Of a stretch of DNA of 64,000 bases, positions 562 through 63,398 are shown in pieces (position 1 is the stretch's first letter; each line of letters opens with the position of its first letter). The position numbers and the translations under genes are program-made. This DNA is from Eledone cirrhosa (lineage: Eukaryota), in assembly GCA_964016885.1 (NCBI GenBank), contig OZ024740.1, forward strand, positions 173,352,001 to 173,416,000. Direction: 5' to 3'. Below the pieces are notes generated by a model. The model saw only the letters and a program-made list of their open reading frames with translations. It did not search any database and was not told the DNA's origin.

Positions 562-636
<75 letters not shown>

Positions 637-639
<3 letters not shown>

Positions 640-1412
640 CGTTTCTGAATTTGTTTAGCAAGATTCTTTATCTGAAATCGTGTGTTGAAACCGATATTGT
701 TATACTTTGGGAGGGTCATGTTGCCAATAAGAAACACACGCACCAGTTGCTTTCACTTCAATTTATTATAATAAATTTATAAATTTAGGAATTTATAAAC
801 CTTCAAGATAGTAAAGAATCATCTATACTCTACCAACATGCTAAAATAGAACATAAGGGTAAATTAGAGAACATAGAAATAAAAATAGAATCTACACACA
901 GAAAAGACGCAATGTTTAGACAAATCACAGAGGCAATTAACATAAAAGAATTACAACCAAAATTAAATAGAAAATATGAGTGGAACAGCAACATCACAAC
1001 TTACAATTAAGGACAAAATGAAAACACACACACACATAGAACAAACAACCAACCGGTAACATGTAAATAAACAAATAAATAAACGAATATAAACACACAC
1101 AGACACCCGGATGTGGCGCATGCACAGACTGAGCACACAACACACACACAGAAACAAAATGGCGTAGGACAGAACAAAGGAGAGGCACAAAAACAAAGAA
1201 AAGAATCCCCAGTCACTGAAGAGGTCACAGAATGTGTGACGAAAGAACTTTGACAATATATAAACAACTATCTGGTTGTGGAACCAACCAACCAACCAGA
1301 AATTTATAAATTTATAAATTCCTAAATTTATAAATATATTATAATAAATTGAAGTGAAAGCAACTGGTGCGTGTGTTTCTTATTGGCAACATGACCCTCC
1401 CAAAGTATAACA

Positions 1413-1416
<4 letters not shown>
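637..1416 (+). mobile_element. Penelope-like element (PLE) remnant: GIY-YIG 3' end plus pseudo-LTR, with an inverted pLTR copy
   Basis: ..TEAINIKELQPKLNRK near 930-975 fits the PLE GIY-YIG C-terminus. Inverted repeat of about 105 bp (694-799 vs 1311-1416). Hammerhead-like motif at 1212-1254. Both ends run into (TA)n. Confidence 0.7.
1212..1254 (+). ncRNA. Minimal type I hammerhead ribozyme, degenerate (PLE pLTR)
   Basis: GTCA-CTGAAGA-G-GTCACA/TGTGAC-GAAA-GAAC-TT-TGAC. Stem I GTCA/TGAC, core boxes intact, one extra G before stem II, non-palindromic stem III. Confidence 0.55.
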
Positions 1417-3097
<1,681 letters not shown>

Positions 3098-3102
<5 letters not shown>

Positions 3103-3209
3103 AACGAGTAGGACCCCGACGGCTGAGCTCAAGCCGTTTCGACGGCTAATTCCGGAATTAGCCGCCGAAACGGCTTGAGCTCAGCCCTCGGAGTCCTACT
3201 CGTTCCTAT
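3098..3209. repeat. 112-bp GC-rich near-perfect palindrome with no loop
   Basis: Centre ttcc|ggaa at 3153/3154. The 56-bp arms have 3 mismatches and the left arm abuts the TA array. Confidence 0.92.
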
Positions 3210-3336
3210 TACCCACTCTACTACCCTAAGTATTGAGTACTTTGGTGCGTTATGGTCCACCTGGTTCCTTACCACATTTCCTTCGTTTTATATATTTATA
3301 TTTATATTTATTTATATATATATATATATATATAAT

Positions 3337-4015
3337 ATATATTTAGAAACACACAGATACTGGTTCAGTCTGGTTCAACCGGATTGGTCTGTCCCAGTCA
3401 TTCATTGAGCAACATCGGTAGGGTTGGCACCATTGACTCACGGTTGGATGTGGATGCATTCATGTATATGTGTGTGTCCGCATGTATCTGTGTGTTTCTA
3501 AATATATTGTTCATAACTCCCTCTGGTCGAGTAATCTTTGAAGTGTAGCGACTGCTGGAAAGCAGCCATTACTCATACTTCTCGCCCCCTTTACCACCTC
3601 TTCTACGGCTTCGATATAAATACCCCCTCCGCCTCCGTGGTATTTTCTTCGAGGTTATAAGAGGCTTAGCTCTGTTTCTCGACCGTGATATCGCGTGACT
3701 ATCTCCCCCTCCGCCTTTTGGGATTCTTTCTCACGTCGTGTAGACGCGTTCTTGAAGCTATAAAATGAGGTATCCTCTTGATAAGTCGACAGACCTCGCA
3801 AGGGCTCTATATCTTTATGATGTACTGTTTTTGTTTATGCCACGAAACTACGTAGTCGATCCTCTTGATAAGTCGGCAGACCTCGCAAGGGCTCTATATC
3901 TTTATGATGTACTGTTTTTGTTTATGCCACGAAACTACGTAGTCGAGGAATCTAGGAGCAGTTTAGGTATGATACATTTTATTACTAATTATATCTAAAT
4001 GTTCCTTCTCTCTTC

Positions 4016-4020
<5 letters not shown>
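3337..4020 (+). mobile_element. Non-autonomous hammerhead-containing retroelement (retrozyme / PLE-dependent candidate), order B-C-A
   Basis: Segments 3356-3508 (B) and 3953-4020 (A) recur joined as A-B on the minus strand at 46240-46474. Contains TATAAATA (about 3616) and tandem hammerheads. 5' end carries a short inverted copy (3337-3360 vs 3484-3507). Flanked by (TA)n. Confidence 0.65.
3773..3949 (+). ncRNA. Tandem pair (87-bp period) of type I hammerhead ribozymes with U3-A8 core variant
   Basis: TCCTC-TTGATAA-GT(C)GGCA...TGCCAC-GAAA-CTACGTAG-TC-GAGGA. Stem I TCCTC/GAGGA, stem II with one bulge, palindromic stem III, GUC cleavage triplets ending at 3857 and 3944. Confidence 0.75.
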
Positions 4021-4061
<41 letters not shown>

Positions 4062-15488: not shown

Positions 15489-15580
15489 CAGTAAAAATAT
15501 GACTAACAAAGAAGTCCAGAAATCCAAATTCGTAAGTAGTCTGGTTACTTCATTGTGATGAATTCAGTTCCTGATAAAGA

Positions 15581-16877
15581 CATCGTTTACTACACACATT
15601 TCCCCATAGGACATGGTTTACTATATACATTCTTCCATAGGACATGGTTTACTATACACATTTCCCCATAGGACATGGTTTACTACACACATTCTTCCAT
15701 AGGACATTGTTTACTATATACATTCTTCCATAGGACATGGTTTACTATACACATTTCCCCATAGCACATGGTTTACTACACACATTCTTCCATAGGACAT
15801 GGTTTACTATATACATTCTTCCATAGGACATGGTTTACTATATACATTCTTCCATAGGACATGGTTTACTACACACATTCTTCCATAGGACATGGTTTAC
15901 TATATACATTCTTCCATAGGACATGGTTTACTATATACATTCTTCGATAGGACATGGTTTACTACACACATTCTTCCATAGGACATGGTTTACTATATAC
16001 ATTCTTCCATAGGACATGGTTTACTATACACATTTCCCCATAGGACATGGTTTACTACACACATTCTTCCATAGGACATGGTTTACTATATACATTCTTC
16101 CATAGGACATGGTTTACTATACACATTTCCCCATAGGACATGGTTTACTACACACATTTCCCCATAGGACATGGTTTACTATATACATTCTTCCATAGGA
16201 CATGGTTTACTATATACATTCTTCCATAGGACATGGTTTACTATATACATTCTTCCATAGGACATGGTTTACTATATACATTCTTCCATAGGACATGGTT
16301 TACTACACACATTCTTCCATAGGACATGGTTTACTATATACATTCTTCCATAGGACATGGTTTACTATATACATTCTTCGATAGGACATGGTTTACTACA
16401 CACATTCTTCCATAGGACATGGTTTACTACACACATTCTTCCATAGGACATGGTTTACTATATACATTCTTCCATAGGACATGGTTTACTATATACATTC
16501 TTCCATAGGACATGGTTTACTATATACATTCTTCCATAGGACATGGTTTACTATATACATTCTTCCATAGGACATGGTTTACTATATACATTCTTCCATA
16601 GGACATAGTTTACTACACACATTCTTCCATAGGACATAGTTTACTACACACATTCTTCCATAGGACATGGTTTACTATATACATTCTTCCATAGGACATG
16701 GTTTACTACACACATTCTTCCATAGGACATGGTTTACTATACACATTCTTCCATAGGACATGGTTTACTACACACATTCTTCCATAGGACATGGTTTACT
16801 ATATACATTCTTCCATAGGACATGGTTTACTATATACATTCTTCCATAGGACATTGTTTACTATATACATTCTTCCA
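15581..16877. repeat. Intronic 31-bp minisatellite, about 42 copies (catggtttactatatacattcttccatagga)
   Basis: Contiguous units with tatata/tacaca/tataca and tcttcc/ttcccc variants and no spacers. Confidence 0.96.
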
Positions 16878-18834: not shown

Positions 18835-19222
18835 GGCCACATTGGCAGTATCTGTAGAGTGTCTGACGCCATGTTTTGCAGTAAAGAGTTACGGCCCTTT
18901 ATGGCCTGAGTTCAAATCCCGCCGAGGTTAACTTTGCCTTTCATCCTTACGAGGTCGATAAAATAAAGTACCAGTAATATCCTGGGGTAATTGCTGGCCT
19001 TGTGCTAAATGTAGAAACAATAATATTTTAGAGCGTTTAGGCGGTGGATTGGCAGTATCGGTAGAGCGTCAGACACCATGCTGTGTAGCATAGAGTTATG
19101 GCCCTTTGCGTTCCGAGTTCAAATCCCGCCGAGGTTAACTTTGCCTTTCATCCTTACGAGGTCGATAAAATAAAGCACCAGCACTGAGATAATTGCTGGC
19201 CTTGTGCCAAAAGTAGGAAGAA
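18835..19222 (+). mobile_element. Two head-to-tail Meta-type SINE copies
   Basis: A-box tggcagtatcggtagagcg, B-box gagttcaaatccc, core gccgaggttaactttgcctttcatccttacgaggtcgataaaataaag. Confidence 0.85.
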
Positions 19223-19469
19223 TTATATTTTAGACCGTTCCGTGCTCCGCTGCACACACGGCCATCCCTGGGCAATTTCAGCAACTTATCAGTTTTTCTA
19301 TGAGAAGAAACTGCTAGCCCCACAACTTTTCTCCGTTTCTGGAGAAAGTGACTGTGAGTAGTCTCCCACAACCCTTCTCGTGCCATATCACAGCCTATTT
19401 AGAGAGAGAGAAAGGTACTTTATTTATAGCCCCCAATATACATGTTTCTATCATTGACACAAAGACAGT

Positions 19470-19720: not shown

Positions 19721-21893
19721 GTAATGGTCATTATGAGAGGACTAAAACTATATAGATAAAATAATTACTTAAATAGATACTCATATTCATGTTCTCTAGA
19801 TAGTATTATCAAATGCAAAAGATGCAAACATTGAGAATTTGTGGAAAATATATGGATAAGAAGATTACAAACTCTACCTCAGTTTCAGGCATGAACATAA
19901 ATAATTGGTGAGTCTATGCAAAGCAGACACTCGGAAGATTAACAGTTTTGGTTCGATATTGCTAAATATTGCCCCTCAAATGATTATCAGTTAAATATTC
20001 CATTCCTTATATCAAAGTTTGTAGAATTAGAGATACATAGAACTTATAATTGGTATGTATTTAATTTGCATCGCAACTCATTTTCCAATTCTGTGTATAT
20101 TTCACTATATTGCCATAATAAGAGGATTAGCAAAATCGTTCAAGCGTCGGAAAAAATACTTTGTGACATTTGTTCCTGCTCTTTACAACCTGAGTTCAAA
20201 TCCCGCCAATCTCATCTTTGCCTTTCATCCTTCTAAGGTTGATAAAATGTTAGGATCGATATAATCGATTTTCCCTTCTCCACAAATTGCTGACCTTGTG
20301 CCAAAATTAGAAAGCATTATATTGCCATAATAGATTATATACCAAGTGTTAAATATGCACAACTTTCTTTAGAAGAAAATTGTGGAGAGAAAACGTAATT
20401 GGTGACGCTATTTTAAGAAAGATTCCCAAAAGATTAATATATTATGTCATTTTTATTTTCACTTAAGGAGTTATTTTTAATTCTATTAGCTCTGACTATC
20501 AAATCTACATTAGATCTCCACCCAACTATCTGATGATAACGAAAACTCCCACATACAACTAACTATATATGAAGGGCAGTGGAAATGCCGAAGACACTTG
20601 AATGTCGTATTAGATTCTTTACAGTATCTAGATCGGTAACCAATGATAGAGTTCAAATAGCTTGAGGTCAACTGTTGTAAAGATAAGTTCCTGGTATGCA
20701 GTATGCGACCTGGTTTCATTACGTGGTGAAAGTCATTTCACAGCATTTATATTTCTAATGCACGCCAGAAAGATTTTCCATTTCGGTAAAACTTCACTAT
20801 ATTAATTAACATGATAACATTTTGGACAATGTCTTTCGTCAGAAAATCTTTCAATTAAGGGTCCTACTCAATATGTTAGATATTTCTTCTCACTGCACTT
20901 GTTATTTTTCTGAAACGATTCTCGGGAATGAGACACCTAAAACAACGAGTCTCTTCAAATATTTGTGATTATTTATTTATATATTACCATTATAACCTTA
21001 TTTGTACTCTAAGAGTTTTATCGCAGGAAATAACAGGATTCGCCAATGCTTATCATGTAATTGACAGAATTATTGTATTAATACAATTTACTTGCTGGCA
21101 ACATTTATCTGGTGCTTCTACTCAGGACTGCTGAAGATGACTCACGTGTAGAACAGGATGATGGGTGTTGGTGTTTTTTTTTTGTTTTTTTAAGAAAATG
21201 ACTTTAAAAATTCCGTCAGAGATTACAAATATATCACTCGATTCCTCATACATAACAAATAATCTTCAGTTAGGTTGGTTAGAAGATAGGGCCAAAGATA
21301 TATAGTTGAAAAAAGATGCTTCTTGATAATAATTTTTTCTACTTTTGGCACAAGGCCAGCAATTTCAAATGAAGGGGAATGTCGATTAAATCGGCTCCAG
21401 TGCGTTATTGGTAATTTATTTTATCGGCCCCACAAGGATGAAAGGCAACGCTAACCTCGTTGGGATTGTAAATATGTATTACATAATATATGAAACCAAA
21501 GTTTTTGTTTCTTCTTTTTCTATTTATAGACTCTTTAATTAACCTCACAGGGGGAGTAACTAGTGACCCTGTACTTTCAGAATCTAGGATGATATACTGA
21601 AAGGTTTTATTGTTATCTACAATCCATATAAGTTGAATTGTGTTTTTAAATTGAGACGTTTCTTGATTATACAGACATCACAATTTTTAAAGCAATGAAC
21701 TCTCTCAATGCTGGTGCCCTACTCACACCTAAGTGTACGGAGTAAGTGTTTGTCAAGAATCTTGGTCTGGGATATAGAACAGCTCCAGTGATAAATCAGT
21801 AAGCGTTAATTCTTCGTTAGCTGCAATTCTCATGAAAATCCTGATCGTAGATAAATGACCACTTGTCACTGCTGTAGGTGGCCGAATGCTATT

Positions 21894-22547
21894 AATTGTT
21901 TCTACTATTGGCACAAGGCCAGCAATTACCCAGTACATTACTGGTACTTTATTTTATCGACCCTGTAAGGATGAAAGGCAAAGTTAACCAGAAAAAAATG
22001 GTTAATCTAAATTGACATTGTACAGTAACATATTACATGACTTATCATAACAGCTGATTCCCCAATCAAATCAGGGAAACAAACTCCTGCTAGATGTCTT
22101 ACACCACAATCACTGTTTGTATTTCTGATAGTCATTAGTCCAGGTGTCTTTTTGAAGTATATCAATAATTGCTTCTATTTTTGGCACAAGGCCAGCAATT
22201 ACCCAGTACATTACTGGTACTTTATTTTATCGACCCCGTAAGGATGAAAGGCAAAGTTAACCTCGGCGGGATTTGAACTCAGAATGGCAAGGGCCGTAAC
22301 TCTATGCGTCAAAGCATGGCGTCCAACCCTCTACCGATACTGCCAATTCACCACGTAATAAATAATTGTTTCTACTTTAGGCACAAGGCCAGCAATTACC
22401 CAGTGTATTACTGGTACTTTATTTTCTCGACCCCGTAAGGATGAAAGGCAAAGTAAACCTCGGCGGGATTTGAACTCAGACCGTAAAGGGACGTAACTAT
22501 GCTGGAAAGCATGGTGTCCGACTCTCTACCGATACTGCCAATCCACT
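21894..22547 (-). mobile_element. Cluster of three Meta-type SINE copies
   Basis: ggcacaaggccagcaattacccagt..gatgaaaggcaaagttaacctcggcgggatttgaactc recurs near 21900, 22170 and 22370. Confidence 0.85.
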
Positions 22548-22975
22548 AATAAATAATGTACGTAAAGTTTCATTGATCAAGTTGACGTAACCGATTCACA
22601 AACTTAGTTCACCTGGAGATTGGAGAATACTCTCGATTGTGTGGAAAATAATACTAGATTTAGGGTGAGACAAATGTTTTTTAAGTTCACATCTGTTATA
22701 ATTGTTTCGGTGTATTTCTGGGAATAACTCGTTAGTCTACATTGCCTCAGTTTCCCTAACTGACAAGATTAGGCACATAAGAGTTGCAGGTTTAATGTAG
22801 ATGAGAGATTAATTGATAATAGAATTCAATTTTTTTGTATGTGATATCTTATTTCTTACACTTTGTTTGAAAGCATTAGTATTAACTAATACAAATATTT
22901 GCATATTATTTTATGTGTATCTTTCATTTTGTTGTATGAGGTAAATTCTAATTCAATTTTGACGTATAATTTCAG

Positions 22976-29050: not shown

Positions 29051-29325
29051 AGATATATATGAAAGATGAGGACTTTCGTGAATTTTCTAAGGCTAGTAAC
29101 AGATGTATATGAAATATGAGGACTTTCGTAAATTTTCTAAGGCTAGTAACGACGTAAACAAAGCACAATGTCTTCAATTCTCGCAAAGTTCACTTTACGA
29201 CCATCTATATACTTTAACAGTATCGGTAGAGAGTTCAACTTTACGACCATCTATATACTTTAACAGTATCGGTAGAGAGTTCAACTTTACGACCATCTAT
29301 ATACTTTTACAGTATCGGTAGAGAG
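29051..29325. repeat. Adjacent 2x50-bp and 3x46-bp tandem duplications
   Basis: 50-bp units at 29051 and 29101. 46-bp units at 29192, 29238 and 29284, each containing the SINE A-box cagtatcggtagagagt. Confidence 0.88.
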
Positions 29326-29862
29326 TGGACAAAATGCTTTACAGTATTTATATGTTCTGAGTTCAAATCCCACTTAAGTCAACTTTGTCTTTCATCCTTC
29401 CGGGTTCGATAAAATAAAGTACCAATTAAGTACTAGGGTCGATATAATCAACTTTTCCCCTTCTCCAAATTGGTGCTTTGTGCCAATGTTACAAAGGAGT
29501 ATTAGGTGTTGTTAGGGCGGTGGATTGGCAGTATCGTTAGTGCGTCAGATGAAATGCATTGCAGTTTTTCGTTACGGCTCTCTGCGTTCTAGTTTCAAAT
29601 CCCGCTGAGGTTGGTATTGCCTTTCTTCTTTCCAAGGTCGATAAAATAAAGTACCAGTCAAATACTGGGGTAAATAAAATCGAGTTTTCCCTTCCCAAAT
29701 TGTCGGTCTTGTGCCTAAGTAAGAAAACAAAAGATGTTATGACAGTGGATTGACAGAATCGTTAGAACATTATTTGCCTTTCATCCTTATGGGGTCGATA
29801 AAATAAAGTACCAGTAATACACTGGGTATTTGCTGGCCTTGTGCCAAAAGTAGAAACAATTA
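29310..29862 (+). mobile_element. Cluster of three Meta-type SINE copies
   Basis: Repeated head, B-box and core (ctttcatcc..gtcgataaaataaagtacc). Confidence 0.8.
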
Positions 29863-30499
29863 TTTGCACTATTAGTTCCAGTTCTTTATGTTCTGCTTAT
29901 AAGACAAAATAACATTTAAATACTGGGGATGATGTAATCGACTGTTCCCTTTCCCTAAACTTGAAGCCATATGTCTATGTAAGAAATCCTTATTAGGTGT
30001 TGATCTTCGTTTCAAATGTTATATTTTTCTACTCTTCACTCTATTAATAATTCGCTAGGAATTGTTAAATACAGATAATTGTTTGAATTAGTTTAATGTA
30101 TTCGTAAGTATTTCATTTATTCTAATGAAGAAAAGTGTGAAAGTCACATTTGTATCTCACTAAAAGATGTGATTATTGTATCTAGTAAAAGAAAATCCGT
30201 CCTCTCCAAACTGTTTTACTTCATTTAAACTACATCTGTCTTTTGGAAATGGAAGACCATCACACCTCCCATTTATCTTCATAAATAAGATATCCTAGTC
30301 TATTATGATTCAATAAATTTATTGATAATTTATTTCATTTAATCTGTGAAGTTGAATAAACGTTTAATAACTAATCTAAGTTGAGCGAAAAATACATTTT
30401 TATATTAATTGTGGAGATATAAGTTACATGGAAGCAGATATTTCCTTTTTTGTATTTATTTAGTAATTTCCTCTTTTTTTTTTTTTCTTTTCTATATAG

Positions 30500-42952: not shown

Positions 42953-45900
42953 TGTCCTTTGTAGAATTAAAAACTAACTGAAAAGAAATATTACCCAAGC
43001 TGTGAATAACTTTAAATTTGATTCTGACAGAACTTTGTCGAAACTTTTAAAGAAGATCATCGACTATTTTCAAAAATAAATACGAAATATTAGTGAATAG
43101 ACGAACTCATCATGGCAAAAAGTACAAATCTCCTTCGACCAAATCGCAACTTCAACCGTTGTATACAGTGGAGCTGCGAGCTTAACAAAGTATTATATGA
43201 AGCATACAAACAATCTGAACCCCAAAAGTTCGGTTTTATGCAAAGGCTAAAAACTTTATGGAACTACAAACACCCAGAATTAGACTTTTCTCCAAAGCAT
43301 TTAAATGAACAGGCAAAACGTATCATTGGATGTAAATTGATACATCTAACGGAATTGAGTGATACTACAAATACAGCCCTTGTAGACAACCACCCCACCT
43401 CCACTGACAGACAAAGAGAATGGTCAGCTAAATCTAACAGTGAACAGCTCACCAACAATTTTGCTGAAATCCATCCCACTTCGACAGAAGAACAGCGAGA
43501 AAGGTCAGCTAACTCTAGTAGTAATTGTCACCACATCAACAACGAGGCTGAAATTCATGACTCTACTGAACAAACAGAACACCAAAAACTTGTGGAAACC
43601 CTACAAGTGATATGGAACGATATGTTTCAAGAGATACACAGCCTTAATGTGAGTGACAGACCATACAACACCAGAATCAGTAAAGAACCCACTAAATTGG
43701 AATTGGAAACGGTGAACGAAATAGCTGGCAATTATCTGAAGGCTATGCGATCTAAAGGTGTAGAAACGACATTTGAAACGCTTAATATTTTGTTATATGT
43801 TTCAGCTGTCACATTGCTATCATATAACATACATCTAAAACCACGCAATCAAGATACAAACAGAAAGCCTGAACCGGCGTGGATGCGAAATTTAAAAAGC
43901 AAAATTTTGTCCCTGAGACGAAGTATCTCACACATAGCAGTCGTTATGAAATGCAACATAGAGAGCAACTTCACACGACACCAGGAAGACCTAAAAAAAA
44001 AGTTAGAGAGACGATTTGGAGATACAAAATTTAAAACTTTGAACTCCAAATTACACCAGTTGAAACAACAACTCACAGCTACAACAGGAAGACTAAAATA
44101 TAAGTCAACAGCACATAAACGACAAGTGCTAAATAGATTGTTTACCAGAGATCCTAAATCAGTTTATCGCAGCTTCGGTGGCAAAAGCTCAATCCCTGTA
44201 AATGACACCCTTTCAAAAGAACAGGTTGAGAGCTACTGGAGATCTGTATGGGAAACGGATGACGGATTCAACAGACAAACTAATTGGCTAAAAGAACTGG
44301 AACAGGACTACTGCCAACATGTCCAGACAAATCAATATGACATAGATGGATCAATACTGGAAACAGCTCTACAGAAAATGTCGAATAGGAAAGCGCCAGG
44401 CCCAGACCTCATTACAGGATACTGGTTGAAGAATTTCACTTTCTATCGGCAAGATCTCATACGGCTGTTTACAGAAACCATTAAAAGCACACAAGAACTG
44501 TCCAGATGGTTATCAACTGCCACTACTCTCCTCATTCCCCAAAATAGCCAAACCACCCTTGCTAAAAATTACCGTCCAATAGCCTGCCAAAACATCATGT
44601 ATAAATTATATACTGGGTGCCTTAACCTGTTCTTACAGGATCACTGTGCTACCAACAACATCATAACACCTGAGCAAGCTGGTGGAAACAGGGAGGTGTG
44701 GGGTTGCATAGATCACCTACTAACTAACAAAATGATTCAGGAAAAAACAACAAAGAATCGCAGAAACATGGCTGTGGTGTGGCTGGACTATCAAAAAGCA
44801 TTTGATAGTGTACCTCATGAGTGGATTATTAAGGCTTTACAGTTAGCTAAAGTCCCACAACCATTGGTAGTTGCTGTTGAACGCCTGACCAAGAACTGGT
44901 ACACCAATTTGATCCTTAGAGGTGAGAAGGAGCAAGTTAAGACTGATAAGATACATTACCAGAAGGGCATCTTTCAGGGTGATAGCTTGTCAGTGCTACT
45001 CTTCGTTCTCTCACTGAATCCACTATCTTACCTACTCAGGAAACAAGGTGGACAAAGAAGTGGGCCCAGAAGTATCTCCCATCTTTTCTTTGTTGACGAC
45101 CTGAAGTTGTATAGGCCAAATATCAATGACATCAAGAAACAATTGGACCTCATTACACAATTTTCAACCGACATCAAAATGAAATTTGGTGAGTCCAAGT
45201 GTGCATATTTGGCAGTAAAACGTGGAAGAGCTGTGCCCTCCTCTAGAAATCTAGAGATGAACGGCCTGACAATACAACCTCTACAGTCAGGTGACAACTA
45301 CAGATATCTTGGACAGGATGAGAATGTCAGATATGATGGACCCATAAATAAGGAGAGAACCAGAACTGAATACCTCAGAAGAGTAGAGAAAATATGGTCA
45401 TCAGAATTGTCAGCGTACAACAAATACATTGCCTACAATACTTATGCTGTGCCAATTCTAACGCCAACATTTGGCCTGCTGAACTGGTCATTGCAAGAAC
45501 TAAGTGAGATGGATGTTAGAACTCGAAAACTTCTCAGTGTTACTGGGAACTTTAACATCAATGGTGATGTGGATAGGCTATACTTCTCACGCAAGGAAGG
45601 TGGCCGGGGTCTAAAATCAATATTAACAACATATGAGACCCGGATAGTAACACTGAAGTAACACCTTCAACAGAGGAAAAAGGTTGGCAACCATCTTGCC
45701 CAGGTTTATGAGCATGAAAAAAAAAATATCATTAGAATAGCGACTGATCTGGAGGAGAGATATGGAATAAAGCCTGATATAAATCTCTCACCCAGAGAAA
45801 TCGGAAGATCCTATTCAATGTTCAAAAAAGATTTAAAAAATTGACCAATTTACAGAAAAAGTTGTGCATGGATACTTGAGGCGTAAAACACAGACCATAG

Positions 45901-46121: not shown

Positions 46122-46208
46122 AGATGAATGGCGCACAAAGGGTTAATGTTTATTGGCAAGAAGTTTTTTGAATAATAAAAGACGGGTTAAAGCGACCTAC
46201 AATGTATC

Positions 46209-46244
<36 letters not shown>

Positions 46245-46492
46245 ATTTAGAAACACACAGATACATGCGGACACACACATATACATGAATGCATCCGCAC
46301 CCAACCGTGAGTTAAGATTGCCAACTTCACCGATGTTGCTCAATGAATGACTGGGACAGACCAATCCGGTTGAACTAGACTGAACCAGTATCAGAGTTAA
46401 AAATACATTATGAAGAGAGAAGAAACATTTAGATATAATTAGTAATAAAATGTATCATACCTAAACTGCTCCTAATATATATATATATATAT

Positions 46493-46524
<32 letters not shown>

Positions 46525-46664
46525 ACACAGATACATATATATATTATATATATATACACAGATACATATATATATATATATGTATCTGTGTATATATATA
46601 TAATATATATATATATAATATAATATATATAATATAATATATATATATAATATAATATATATAT

Positions 46665-46755: not shown

Positions 46756-46842
46756 GATACATTGTAGGTCGCTTTAACCCGTCTTTTATTATTCAAAAAA
46801 CTTCTTGCCAATAAACATTAACCCTTTGTGCGCCATTCATCT
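46122..46842. repeat. About 110-bp inverted repeat pair (46122-46230 / 46735-46842) enclosing TA arrays
   Basis: agatgaatggcgcacaaagggttaatg..cctacaatgtatctgtgtg and its exact reverse complement. The two identical N-termini MARSFLNNKRR in the ORF track reflect this. Confidence 0.92.
46240..46474 (-). mobile_element. Second, permuted partial copy (A-B) of the 3.3-4.0-kb hammerhead element
   Basis: 46407-46474 is the reverse complement of 3953-4020 (1 mismatch). 46240-46392 is the reverse complement of 3356-3508. They are joined by a 14-nt linker, with (TA)n on both sides. Confidence 0.8.
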
Positions 46843-47437
46843 AACTTTAGACCAACAAATACCAAGTAAACGGAGCGTTGACAAGAATGATGGAGAATGA
46901 ATCTTCAAGGTAAGCAGTTTCCTCCCGAGCTGTTAGTTCACGCGGGATTCTCTGCTACACCTTTTCGTAATAATACCGAACAACGTACTGCTGGTCACTC
47001 CTTCCTCCAAAAGCCGTACAAAGCGGACATGTGCATCGGGTAGATGGATCGGGTGAAAATCTACACGAGACCTATGGGAGAAATTCGCAAGGGACTGCAC
47101 CGTGAGGGATAGAGAGAAAGAGTAACTTAGTGGAAAGAGTGCGAATGAACTTTTGAGGTAAGTAGCCTACGCCTTACTGCTATGACACTGGAACCTTCTG
47201 CCAACTTAACCTGTGACTTTCTCTTTCACATTTACTCTAAAAGGCTAAAACAGAGGAGTATGAAAAGAAGAAGCTCAACAATATTTATATAAACAATGCA
47301 CGTAGACAGCAAAACTGTACTTTCAACTTCTTAATTTTCTCCAAATAAAACAAGCCTCCTGTCGGTATATTTTCGTGAGTTTATAACAGGCACTCACAAA
47401 TAAACGTTTCTCATTTGAGGTGCTATTACCATTGTTC

Positions 47438-55784: not shown

Positions 55785-56737
55785 TAATACAATGCTTACA
55801 GAACGACTGCACAAACGAATATAATATAAGGGAAGGTGGAGACAACCGAGCCACTACCAGAGCAAAAGATAGCATTATCACTAGAAGCACTCGGAAACCT
55901 CTGTGATGATTTTGAGGCAAGCCAGCACGCTCGCAGCGTTACCTCGGGTGATGGCCAGGCTGATGCGTTGGAACAACCAAGCGCCCTCGCGAGATTCACC
56001 AGTTACCTCTGTTAGGTGAGCCGCCAGTGAAGATAGGAATCTCGCAGTCAGCAACCCGACTCCCCCGAACGTCTCGAACGCCACAGGCTGGAAAATGTAG
56101 TTGGCCAACAAATACAGTATTTTAGGATTTTGCTCCGTTCGGCTGCTGAAGCTGTGGCTCTCGCCCTAACCGCAGCATCCAGGATGTGGGAAGAAGCAAA
56201 AGAGTCATTAACTGCGACGTCCCAGACAAGGCTTCTCGACCAGGGGCACAGGGTAAGGTCGTCAGGTCTTTTCCCATCACAACTGACAGCCCTGATGGTT
56301 CCAAGATTGAGGGGATGTTCGCCCGTGCCAAAGCTCTCTTGAAAATAAGGTTTAGCTCCGTGTGACGCGCGAAGCGACCGGCATTCGGGCGGCAAGAAAG
56401 ACCGTGGAGGCCTGTGGAGTCGAGAAGTCTTCCACATTGGCAACTCAAACCCGTACAGACGTCAGCTCCCACTCTGAGGGCAATGGAGACACGAAGTTCG
56501 TCCAAAATGAGTAGGCAACCAACGTTAGCCATGGGTAGGGCATCAACCCAGTCACCTGAGTATTTGGCACTGGCAGATAGTAAGCGGCACCTTGAAAACT
56601 GATCCGACTGCATGGTGACCTTCGAATTTATGCTGTCCCAAGCTCTCTGACTTCGACTGTCCTCCACCTTCTCAGGAACAGACAAGCCCAACTCACTCCA
56701 TTATTGGAGAGCTTCATCCAACTTCGGCTGGCTCTTT
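55785..56737 (-). mobile_element. CRE-clade retrotransposon, 5'-truncated (zinc knuckle plus RLE)
   Basis: CQCGRLLDSTGLHGLSC, ARHTELN, DGKRPDDLTLCPW, LVWDVAV, FQPVAFETFG, LFQRISLAITRGNAASVL. Frameshifted. Confidence 0.82.
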
Positions 56738-56849: not shown

Positions 56850-57430
56850 ATTTGTTTCTGATTTAGGCACTAGGCCAGCAATTTGAACCCGTACGAATGA
56901 AAGGCAAAGCTAACCTCGACGGGACTTTAATTCAGAGTGTAAAAGGACGTAACTATATGCTGCAAAGCATGATGTCTGACGCTCTACCGATACTGCCAAT
57001 CTACTGCCCTAAAGTTAAATATAATAATTGTTTTTACTTTTGGCACAAGGCCAGCAATCATTCCAGTGCATTACTGGTACTTTATTTTGTCGACCCCGTG
57101 AGGATGAAAGGCAAAATTAATCTCGGCCGGATTTGAACTCAGACCGTAAAAGGGCGTAACTCTGTGTTGCAAAGCATGGCGTCCGACCCTCTACCGATAC
57201 TGCCAATTCACGGCCATTGTTAAATATAATAATAGAAATTGATTTGATATATAATAATTGTTTCTACTTTTGGCACAAGGCCAGTAATTATCCCAGTGCA
57301 TTACTGGTACTTTATTTTATCGACCTTGTAAGGATGAAAGGCAAAGTTAACCTCGGCGGGATTTGAACTCAGACCATAAAGGGCCGTAACTCTTTGCTGC
57401 AAAGCATGGCGTCCGACCCTCTATCGATAC
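56850..57430 (-). mobile_element. Three tandem Meta-type SINE copies
   Basis: Three consecutive tail-core-head reverse complements separated by AAT-rich linkers. Confidence 0.85.
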
Positions 57431-58749: not shown

Positions 58750-59725
58750 AAAAAATATAATAATATAATGCTTACAGAACGAAAACACAAAGACATAATA
58801 TATACAAATATAAATGCAAAAAGAGAGATAAAAAAACATTAAAAAAGAAGGGGGGGGGGGGGCAATTCACCATTAAGTGTGACAATCGACCGCACATCAC
58901 ATAAGAGTTAACTAAACACTGAGGCAAACCAACACGCTCGCAGCATTACCACGGGTGATGGCGAGGCGAAGGCGCTGAAATAACCAGGCACCCTCGCGGG
59001 CATCACCTGACGCCTCGGTATGACGGGCCGTTAGCGATGACAAGAACTTCGTTGTGAGCGGCCCAACTTCACCAAACGTCACGAACGCCACAGGCTGGAA
59101 ATAATAATTACCGGAATAATCCGGGTATTTCCGAATTTTATTTCATTCCGCAACGGAAGCAGTGACTCCCATGTTTACTGCGGCATCAATGGTGTGGGAG
59201 GAAGCAAACGAGTCACTCACTGTGGCGTCCGAAATGAGATACCTACCTCTTTCCCAGGGACAAAGAGTAAGACCGTCTGGACTCTTCCCATCACTTCTGG
59301 ATAATTTAGCCAGCTCCAGAACTGAGGGGATATTTTCCCGAGCTAGGGTCTGCTTAATGATCAGGTTTAACTCGCTGTGGCGGGCAAAACGACCAGCATT
59401 CAGGCGGCAGGACAAACCATGTAGACCCGTGGATTCGAGGGACCTACCACAGTGGCATCTCAGATCCCCACAGATGTTGGCTCCGACTCGAAGTACAATG
59501 GAAATGCAAAAGAGAGAGTTGAAAGTTTCCCTTGAACTCAAATTGTCCTATACTCTCTGCTTCCGCCTATCCTCATCAGTAACGAGAACTGTCAAACCCA
59601 GCTCTCCTCACTGTAGTAAAGCTTCATCCAACTCTCTGGTGGAACTAGTCCAAATTGGGAAGGAGAGGATGTCACCAACTAAAGGGGAGCAAGCGTGGGT
59701 GGAGGAAAGAAAGCAGGGTTAGAGA
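58750..59725 (-). mobile_element. CRE-clade retrotransposon, 5'-truncated
   Basis: PAF.SSTHACSPLVGDIL, CHCGRSLESTGLHGLSC, SDGKSPDGLTLCPWERGRYLISDATV, QRLRLAITRGNAASVL. Confidence 0.82.
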
Positions 59726-60698: not shown

Positions 60699-62194
60699 CA
60701 GAGGTCCTCAAACTTTTGGGGGCACTTCCCCACTCCCTCACGGCCTCGTAATACCCTCAGCGCCCCCAACCCTATTTTCAGAGAGACCTGCCTACACGCA
60801 AATTGTAAATAACATATAATAAATAAAACCATTAAAATAATATAAGAAGGGTCGTTCTACTTGGGATTATTTATTTACATTACAGAATGATTTTAAAATT
60901 GTATAAATTTACAGTAAAATAATATTGCAAATATGTTTTAAATATATACATAAACAACATTACAAATGCGTAAATAATATTATAAATTGCTCGCAATTCG
61001 TTCAGAAGGACATTACAAATATAATGTCTAAACCGAGTATAAAAATATAATAATATAATTCATTGAACAATAATGATAAAGGAAAGAAAAAAAAAAGGGG
61101 GGGGGGGGGGGGGGAATTCACCATCAAGCGTGACAATCTGCAACACCTCATTTGAGGGTTAACTGCACACTTTCAGGCAAGCCAACATGCTCGCAGCATT
61201 ACCACGGGTGATGGCGAGGCTAAGGCGCTGAAATAACCGGGCACCCTCACGGGTAGCACCTGACACCTCAGTAAGGTGAGCCGCCAGTGATAACGAGAAC
61301 TTCGCTGTCAGAGGCCGAACGTCTTGAACGCCACAGGCTGAAAAAAATATTTGATAGGTCCTGGTATTTCCAAATTTTATTCCATTCGGCAGCAGCAGTG
61401 ATCACCATCCATGATGTGGGGGGGAGCAAAAGAGTCACTGACTGTGACATCCCAGATGAGACACCTACCTTCACCAAGGGACAAAGGGTAAGACCATCTG
61501 ATCTCTTCCCATCACTTCTGGATAAACCAGCCAGTTCCAGATCTGTGGGGATATTTGATGATCAGGTTTAGCTCGGTGTGATGAGCAAAACAACCAGCAT
61601 TCAGGCGGCAGGACAAACCATGTAAACCTGTGGAGTCGAGGGACCTACCACAGTGGCATCTCAGACCTCCACAGATATCAGCTCCCTCACAAAGTGCAAT
61701 GGAGATGCAGAGTTCGTCCTGACTGAGAAGGCCACAAATGTTGGCCATAGGCAGAGCTTCAATCCAGTCCCCCGAGAACTTTGCGCTAGCAGAAAGTAAG
61801 CGGCACCTAGAAAATTGATCGGAAAGATCAAAGAGAGAGTTGAAAGTTTCCCTTGAACACAGATTTTCCCATACTCTCTGCTTTTGTCTATCCTCATCAG
61901 TAACTGGGACTCTCCACTGTAGTAAAGCTCATCCCACACCCTGGTGGAACTAGTCCAAGTTGGAAAAGAGAGGATGTCACCCACCAAAGGGGAGCAAGCG
62001 TGGATGAATATATACTATGTATAAATAAATAAATATATATTTTTATTTTACTATATTTATATATAATATGTATCATTTGATATTTAATATACTATTATAT
62101 CATCTCTACTGCACCCCCACCCCTGCCCTCGTAGGTTCCAGCAGATCCTCTTAATGCCCCCTGGGGACGGTAGCGCCCACTTTGAGAACCTCTA
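60699..62194. mobile_element. hAT-superfamily non-autonomous element containing a CRE copy
   Basis: TIRs CAGAGGTCCTCAAAC / CTTTGAGAACCTCTA and a perfect 8-bp TSD TTCTAAAA at 60691-60698 and 62195-62202. Confidence 0.82.
61000..62004 (-). mobile_element. CRE-clade retrotransposon, 5'-truncated, nested in the hAT element
   Basis: Same motifs as the 59-kb copy (CHCGRSLDSTGLHGLSC..AITRGNAASML), including the G/A homopolymer 3' UTR. Confidence 0.82.
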
Positions 62195-63217
62195 TTCTAA
62201 AACATCATAGATGTGAATAGAAAGTAGGAATCTGACAAAGAGAATGTAGTGTCCATGTAGGAAAGAAGTAAGCTCTCTTCAAACCAGATATATGACCCGA
62301 ATACATCCAACAAAGTAAAACAACTGAAGACACCCAAGAACAAAGTGGTGATATTAATCCGTGTCATGGATTAAGTCTACCCAGAATGCAAATGGCTGGA
62401 ACAAATAAAGCAAGTCATCTCGTCCTAGACTCTAATAATTCTGCTAATCCGTTGCTCTAGACTAGTACTTTATTTTATCAACAACAAAACGATGAAAAAC
62501 ATAGTTGACCACAGTAAGTTTTGAACTCAGAGCACACATAATCTGGGCAAGTCCTGCAGTAACGATTCTGCTAATTTGCCACCTCAGAAACGACTTTGGA
62601 AATGTAGCTTTTTAATTACATTTTTAAAAATCAATAAAATTTCTGAATATTAATTCTGAGTTTGTTTCCCTCTTTTAATCACTGAAATTTTTGAAAACAT
62701 AAAAGTTTTTGTAGGACGCCATAATCTCCACAACTCATGATTTACATAATTAAACATTGGGGAATACATTAAATACTGAGATTATTGATTAATTGTTTGA
62801 AACATTTAAAAATAATTTCTGAATATCTTGGAATCAGTTTCAATGTTAATCTTCCCTCTGAAAAGGTAAGAAACCTCATCAAAACCTTTAAGAATTACAT
62901 TTTCTGGTTAATATGATTTCAATGTCAACATAATCAGGACTCTCTCTCTCTTCAATGTTTTGTGTATGAGTATGAATTGGTTGTTTAATAGTAAAGTTTG
63001 TTTTAAATGAAGTTTAATGAGGCTGGTTAAATAAACAGAAAAAGAAAGAATGAATGCAGCGTGTAGAATGAGATGGTTAATTTACAACTACATCATAATA
63101 AAAAGTCATTCTCCATCTGCAATGATTGTAAGAAAGGTATGTAGGAACGTCATACTGTCGTATTTTTTCAGTATATAGATATGAGATATTCTGTATATGA
63201 TTACGAAGGATCATGCC

Positions 63218-63340
63218 ATTCTGAGTTCAAATCCCGCCGAGGTTAACTTTGCCTTTCATCCTTACGGGGTCGATAAAATAAAGTACCAGTAATGTACTGG
63301 GTAATTTTCTGGCCTTGTGCCAATAGTAGAAACAATTATT
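63218..63340 (+). mobile_element. 5'-truncated Meta-type SINE
   Basis: B-box, core and tail are close to the consensus of the other copies. Confidence 0.85.
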
Positions 63341-63398
63341 TTAAACTAGAGTAACTACATAACAGATTACTCCTCTATTATATATATATATAATCATA

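Follow-up and report, generated by a model that had tools for sequence, protein, structure and literature searches.

Animal non-LTR retrozymes are non-coding elements with a GC content below 50%, a type-I hammerhead ribozyme and ends joined head to tail; their RNA is predicted to be highly self-paired, and their hosts carry Penelope-like elements (PMC7229834; bioRxiv 10.64898/2026.07.22.740005). Tested retrozyme circles measure 170–400 nt (Cervera and de la Pena 2020, PMC7229834), and consensus sequences span 51–972 bp (Li, Clavereau and Pollet 2026, bioRxiv 10.64898/2026.07.22.740005). An origin of retrozymes from Penelope terminal repeats has already been published (bioRxiv 10.64898/2026.07.22.740005), and the case that Penelope-like elements move animal retrozymes has been built on co-occurrence and terminal-repeat homology (PMC7229834; bioRxiv 10.64898/2026.07.22.740005). 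The terminal repeats (pLTRs) of Penelope/Poseidon, Neptune and Cercyon themselves carry hammerhead features, with an ATG inside the hammerhead (PMC4209133, PMC11167929), and show short-overlap inverted 5' pieces, two 3' ends and AT-rich targets (PMC8557442, PMC3846280, PMC11167929). Non-autonomous, head-to-tail derivatives also exist: MRC1 of Chlamydomonas, a non-autonomous Chlamys element, is non-coding, inserts into microsatellites and is mobilised in trans (PMC8557442).

Here we describe a non-coding, hammerhead-bearing unit of 592 nt from the octopod Eledone cirrhosa that is likely a member of the non-LTR retrozyme class or of the non-autonomous Penelope derivatives. With animal retrozymes it shares non-coding sequence, low GC content, a type-I hammerhead motif, ends that join and a highly self-paired predicted RNA; with the pLTRs, hammerhead features, an ATG inside the hammerhead, an inverted 5' piece with a short overlap, an AT-rich target and apparently two 3' ends; and with MRC1, non-coding sequence, a microsatellite target and probably head-to-tail copies mobilised in trans. 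The unit is longer than the tested circles and was initially thought to be longer than usual for the class, a view we withdraw given that 592 nt lies inside the published consensus range. Unlike Penelope-like pLTRs, it has no reverse transcriptase or endonuclease and its segment B joins segment C rather than an ORF; unlike Chlamys derivatives, which are described as being without canonical hammerheads and as sharing 3' sequence with a known autonomous family (PMC8557442), it has a hammerhead. Class, core variant and size are all previously known. No cephalopod retrozyme was found among the literature listings obtained outside subscription journals.

The unit was assembled from two copies in the window, by which we mean the whole 64-kb stretch of DNA analysed. 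The first copy (3337–4020, plus strand) has the order B (3356–3508), C (3509–3952) and A (3953–4020), whereas the second (46240–46474, minus strand, 235 nt) has the order A (46474–46407), a 14-nt linker (46393–46406) and B (46392–46240). Self-BLAST and slice comparison bore out this arrangement, with 143/153 bases of B identical to 46240–46392 and 67/68 bases of A identical to 46407–46474. All three joins (A–B, B–C and C–A) close into a ring A–B–C, the length of which was recomputed as 592 nt after removal of an 87-bp duplication and obtained again from a contig joint (663 + 16 − 87). Segment C is non-coding, with the hammerhead region at its end. As proposed in the preliminary description, the unit has no coding capacity: ATG ORFs on the doubled unit reach 48 aa at most, and GC content is 43%. 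Self-BLAST of the window revealed no terminal direct repeats.

Both copies end in AT-rich sequence merging into (TA)n, as had been noted before, and both are shorter than one 592-nt unit. The first adjoins a (TA)20 target tract (4019–4058) at its 3' end, and the second is flanked by (TA)n on both sides. Segment B contains a long hairpin (3435–3496; z −3.0 and −4.6 in the two copies) just upstream of 3507, the commonest 3' end of the family, at which B ends. Segment A contains a hairpin at 3954–4006, followed by the short stretch 4011–4015 and a second 3' end at 4020. At its 5' side, the first copy begins with a 24-nt piece (3337–3360, minus strand) that is an exact inverted copy of 3484–3507, the common 3' end of the unit. 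This piece stands head to head with segment B, sharing the five bases GATAC, as the preliminary description had stated, and its own 3' end merges with a TA-rich tract at 3289–3336.

We examined the ring in public sequencing data, using all contigs from four of 22 listed runs (X1, X4, X5 and X6); X2, X3, three RAD runs and the 13 small-share runs X7–X19, which have other organism labels, lay outside this comparison, and no RNA data set appeared among the listed runs. Contigs on the 676 bases numbered 1,275 in X1, 39 in X4, five in X5 and four in X6; they show neither circles nor strand, and uncovered stretches in X4, X5 and X6 were not counted as absence. The A–B join (end of A, linker, start of B) was present in all four runs: X1, X5 and X6 show it as a joint, X4 as a loose end. 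Among the contig pieces listed, the C–A join was spanned in three of the four runs (X4, X5 and X6), as was the B–C join (X4, X6 and X1). The latter was bridged by pieces 3479–3646 (depth 118) and 3482–3646 (depth 13) in X4, by 3387–3586 in X6 and by 3489–3591 in X1, which includes just ~20 letters of B. Depth of the main X4 contigs was similar all round the ring (106–114 in B, 118 across B–C, 163 in C and ~114 in A), and therefore, as far as depth is a guide, B usually continues into C. A second X4 variant (depth 37; joint 3499–3594) has a different, longer B–C spacer while keeping the B-to-C order.

These joins bear on whether the copies might simply be terminal repeats, truncated at the 5' end, of an autonomous Penelope-like element, with the B–C join a local or rare deletion. 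The Penelope-type hammerhead and junctions would fit such an origin, as would three X4 contigs that continue from 3495 into other sequence (median 203 nt). Against this, the B–C join in X4 is as deep as B itself and is also found in X6 and X1, the second X4 variant likewise runs from B into C, and no ORF reads among the loose ends listed. The preliminary description had allowed that the B–C join might be unique to this locus, or that A–B might continue into the ORF of a Penelope-like element (PLE); instead, the join recurs in the listed contigs of X4, X6 and X1, and B runs into C or (TA)n in the contigs listed. The contig joins thus largely refute a local B–C deletion, and we consider this origin very improbable.

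The family appears to be multi-copy and a few percent diverged. Per-site depth in X1 was mostly in the tens of thousands or more, compared with 6–14 for the long X1 contigs listed, which, with depth a rough guide rather than a copy number, suggests a family with very many copies. X1 is not simply the same locus again, because no listed run contains more than 0.34 of the window's words and because the 3337–4020 copy has letters at several sites that almost none of the X1 depth shares. The runs also differ in make-up, the variant at 3985 accounting for 26/140 of the depth in X4 and 150/395,540 in X1, with far fewer letters in X4. In X5 and X6, which have other organism labels, ring pieces were 92–99% identical (five and four contigs, mostly at depth 2–6); trace DNA or related species would give the same depth, and we do not claim horizontal transfer. 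Exact unit patterns gave no matches in metagenome contigs and none in viral contigs, and a single match in a prokaryote genome (a Rhodococcus contig) was taken as a chance 19-mer.

The unit carries a type-I hammerhead motif at 3860–3949 (plus strand), identified by a descriptor search that returned two hammerheads in the window (the other lies in a nearby Penelope-like remnant), whereas 100 simulated windows averaged 0.07. None of the 38 Rfam matches at E ≤ 1 was a hammerhead. The motif consists of a 5-bp stem I (3860–3864/3945–3949), the core UUGAUAA (3865–3871, U3:A8), a bulged stem II lengthened by a ~50-nt hairpin, GAAA at 3931–3934 and a palindromic stem III (3934–3943), with GUC ahead of the cleavage site, which is predicted to lie after C3944. 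The U3:A8 core is known from Schistosoma Cercyon elements, and in the Drosophila virilis Penelope hammerhead helix II is bulged and helix III palindromic (PMC4209133). Judged by these three features, the putative ribozyme is of Penelope type and not of the canonical type of animal retrozymes; the very long stem II is a further difference. None of the family variants listed falls in the core or in stem III.

The preliminary description had placed several hammerheads in segment C, which holds in part. The 87-bp duplication (3772–3858/3859–3945, one difference between copies) extends from the start of stem I to 1–2 nt beyond the predicted cut. Its second copy lies in a motif with both arms of stem I, whereas the first (3772–3858, plus strand) starts with the 5' arm of stem I, stops at the cut site and has no 3' arm, although it offers a partner for the 10-bp stem III. 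X4 and X6 have no cover at 3826–3894 and apparently a single hammerhead, which makes it probable that the duplication belongs to this locus or to one subfamily; both runs seemingly carry the weaker stem-II allele of the first duplication copy (no change listed at 3789).

Folding models indicated that the hammerhead would be poorly accessible in its native context. In isolation, the hammerhead fold of 3860–3949 lay 1.1 kcal/mol above the best fold, rising to 4.5–11.3 kcal/mol in growing transcripts with native upstream sequence and to 7.3–11.9 kcal/mol in the circle, where stem-I probability was near 0 and the 3' arm of stem I was captured by 4011–4015 (pair probabilities 0.92–1.0). Transient folding within a short window during transcription was considered and rejected, with stem-I probability near 0 at all ten lengths for both alleles. 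The best fold of a tandem transcript pairs the two palindromic stems III with each other, and the double hammerhead gains 10.7 kcal/mol over two monomers yet stays 7.1 kcal/mol above that best fold; weak, dimer-dependent cleavage is therefore predicted, and silence is possible. Overall, the models predict a ribozyme that is blocked as a monomer and cuts only as a dimer. Most animal retrozyme circles are reported to leave the ribozyme free, whereas plant retrozymes and viroids block it (PMC7229834); a self-pairing block of the kind predicted here is described among animals for some mussel circles only (PMC7229834).

The ring as a whole is predicted to be a highly structured RNA. Its fold on the hammerhead strand has an energy of −169.6 kcal/mol (z −4.6, with 0/60 shuffles as good, and z −4.1, with 0/40), compared to z −0.56 on the opposite strand, where 12/40 shuffles were as good. 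Such one-sidedness would not be expected of a decaying DNA palindrome. A predicted long-range helix (3417–3428/3584–3595, plus strand) encloses the B–C join and shows a two-sided change, with 3420 and 3592 forming A-U in the 3337–4020 copy and G-C in most of the X1 and X4 depth. When 39 family variants were judged singly, 13 fell on pairs with probability >0.9, of which 11 keep the pair, a test biased by the prediction of the helices from the 3337–4020 copy itself. Among transitions, 11/11 keep the pair (128/218 expected), and the pair-breaking variants lie at 3651 and 3652 (probability >0.9) and at 3687 (0.81).

We next consider how the cut site relates to the ends of the copies. The 46-kb copy begins at the equivalent of 3953, 8 nt past C3944, in agreement with the earlier claim, although its first two letters (TA) may equally derive from the target. 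Ending at the common 3' end, it reads like a near-complete cDNA extending from the common start to the cut 5' end. Of the four non-3' breakpoints in the window (3356, 3772, 3945/6 and 3953), two lie within 9 nt past the cut; if breakpoints were uniform this clustering would have P ~0.001, although the comparison was picked post hoc. The 3337–4020 copy passes straight through the predicted cut site; its template must then have been an uncut multimer or a re-ligated circle, unless reverse transcription jumped between templates.

This read-through raises the possibility that the hammerhead is an inherited, mostly silent passenger, the unit being a gutted non-autonomous Penelope-like element whose terminal repeat closed on itself when the ORF was lost and which spreads from uncut linear templates with no circle. 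The blocked hammerhead in every native-context model is consistent with such a passenger, and ribozyme mutants of Anolis Poseidon do not impair insertion in vitro (PMC11167929). An ATG at 3924, within stem II and 21 nt ahead of the predicted cut, recalls Poseidon, in which the ORF starts 26 nt ahead of the cut (PMC11167929), and head-to-tail derivatives such as MRC1 show that non-autonomous forms of this kind arise (PMC8557442). Conversely, the core, changed on both sides at U3:A8, is intact, no listed variant touches the core or stem III, the ring fold is strand-specific with a two-sided change across the B–C join, and two breakpoints adjoin the cut. Taking both sides together, we regard a silent passenger as possible but somewhat doubtful.

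The insertion junctions also link the unit to Penelope-like elements. Insertions of these elements can be recognised by inverted 5' pieces placed head to head, by a 3' extension that is present in some copies and by their position in microsatellites (PMC8557442, PMC3846280), and the Anolis Poseidon protein nicks AT-rich DNA and begins reverse transcription at two internal sites (PMC11167929). The unit likewise has an inverted, 5'-truncated piece beside a direct copy and a (TA)n target. The earlier proposal of a closed, non-coding, hammerhead-bearing mobile unit in (TA)n with Penelope-type junctions is supported. The accompanying proposal of reverse transcription from variable start points is overstated, because the end at 3507 recurs at both window loci and in loose ends running into (TA)n in seven X1 and three X4 contigs. 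The two 3' ends, at 3507 and 4020, lie 166 nt apart on the ring, unlike the 30–40 nt described for a Penelope-like 'tail'; the end at 4020 occurs at the 3337–4020 locus only. In contrast to the arrays reported for animal retrozymes, the insertions here are sub-unit pieces with Penelope junctions.

A Penelope-like stump at 566–1416 (plus strand), which is not part of the unit and lies ~2 kb from it, bears the same marks. It has an inverted 5' piece whose 3' end extends 56 nt further, hence two 3' ends, and (TA)n on both sides, and contains the C-terminus of an endonuclease (792–989) and a minimal hammerhead (1212–1254). A full HMMER search with its 66-aa endonuclease frame gave 57 protein matches; the frame itself had no Pfam match, and 0/21 candidates were recovered by a word-indexed search. 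Three of seven scanned homologues showed a GIY-YIG match, one of them above the Pfam cut-off, and one homologue is a full ORF in which a reverse-transcriptase motif, a cysteine linker and a GIY-YIG motif were recognized by eye. The putative Neptune label of the stump rests on the cysteine linker in homologue P0093 and on the published description of these elements (PMC8557442). Comparison of the unit with 790–1415 of the stump revealed no real homology (best E 0.5), so the stump shows mechanism, not parent. For Octopus vulgaris, 31 recently active Penelope-like families are reported, with ribozymes not mentioned in the accessible part of that account (PMC13282606).

The same TA array as the 3337–4020 copy holds a 112-bp near-perfect palindrome with an 80-bp extension (3098–3290), in which no hammerhead was found and which resembles a further small insertion made of an inverted and a direct part, again with two 3' ends. 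At the 46-kb locus, a 126-bp inverted repeat (98%; 46122–46247/46717–46842) faces the TA array. Its left arm truncates a LINE ORF region at 46122, its end shares a 13-nt motif with the 3' end of B, and short copies of this motif also occur within the TA array (46534–46590). A flank element at 46762–47400 lacks a hammerhead and does not really resemble the unit in sequence (best E 0.5). The LINE region itself includes an 854-aa reverse-transcriptase ORF (43097–45661, RVT_1), broken further on, which we take to be Dong/R4-like.

This neighbourhood invites a different account, in which a LINE that targets microsatellites, for example the ORF at 43097–45661, or amplification at the DNA level has spread the unit as a SINE-like or satellite repeat, with an incidental hammerhead. 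The 46-kb copy does lie just past a LINE ORF, the 13-nt motif of B's 3' end recurs in its flank, and Dong-R4 LINEs are reported as recently active in Octopus vulgaris (PMC13282606). Yet the copies have two internal 3' ends and no poly(A) or fixed LINE-like tail, and a head-to-head inverted piece and a strand-specific RNA fold would be hard to reconcile with such spread. The 13-nt motif is of low complexity, and it belongs to the 126-bp inverted repeat of the flank rather than to the end of an intact LINE. We consider this account very improbable.

Our preferred reading, to which we give slightly better than an even chance, is that of a non-LTR retrozyme unit whose multimeric transcripts are cut in the dimer state, whose RNA may be circular and which a Penelope-type protein inserts into (TA)n. 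The element copies are sections of one ring A–B–C. Copies in full or partial tandem would give rise to longer-than-unit transcripts of the hammerhead strand, which alone folds better than chance; the multi-unit arrays are something we infer, since no listed contig piece spans one whole unit, or two, and the window copies are sub-unit. In a lone unit the hammerhead is predicted to be blocked, whereas neighbouring units would pair their stems III and cut after C3944. This would release a unit-length RNA that a host ligase may circularise, with the ribozyme again blocked in the circle. A Penelope-type protein, probably Neptune-like, would then nick (TA)n and prime internally where the RNA is AT-rich, usually at 3507, immediately beyond the B hairpin, and occasionally at 4020. 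Copying would halt at the cut 5' end, as in the 46-kb copy, or cross an uncut or re-ligated site, as in the 3337–4020 copy, and a second, inverted priming event would create the other junction. As a caution on predicted activity, eight of nine predicted Xenopus retrozymes are reported not to have cleaved (bioRxiv 10.64898/2026.07.22.740005).

In this unit, the insertion junctions themselves bear Penelope marks, beside a probable Neptune-type stump with the same marks. End-mapping in an octopus assembly could test the involvement of the ribozyme cut and of a circular template in transposition, and should be informative because the family appears multi-copy and a few percent diverged.

We also inspected the unit for transcription and splicing signals. 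A TATA-like box (3758–3765) was rejected, being broken by an insertion behind 3760 in X4, X6 and most of the X1 depth there. A candidate 81-nt intron across A–B (donor 3967, acceptor 3368, with a 58-nt AG-free stretch) is retained as no more than a lead: no spliced joint occurs among those listed, the donor is buried in a hairpin and the signals are within chance by a rough estimate. One X4 contig departs from the unit at the splice-donor-like position 3966/3967 into at least 255 letters of other sequence, like a spliced transcript, and the motif of this loose end occurs nowhere else in the 64-kb window. The most far-reaching reading would posit an abundant, viroid-like 590-nt octopod RNA circle, its hammerhead switched off by self-pairing and on in a tandem dimer, pasted into (TA)n by Neptune-type machinery from two fixed internal starts, with the 3966/3967 donor joining hammerhead leaders to exons. 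If true, it would give cephalopods their first retrozyme and would directly record, in a genome, that retrozymes integrate by Penelope-type priming; as a whole we hold this reading to be unlikely.

Other repeats and one gene were observed elsewhere in the window. A dispersed family of ~200 bp, often in tandem pairs (18841–19239, 21890–22557, 29310–29868, 56885–57430 and 63214–63343), presumably resembles octopus tRNA-derived SINEs. The decayed 3' ends of three LINEs (55911–56700, 58797–59700 and 61042–62006), which are related and show a cysteine-histidine motif, are, we assume, CRE-like. Finally, a 31-bp minisatellite of 42 copies (15579–16877) lies within or just before a KY-like gene. A neighbouring exon of this gene marks the host as an octopod, with 89% identity to an Octopus sinensis protein, the best of 27 matches.
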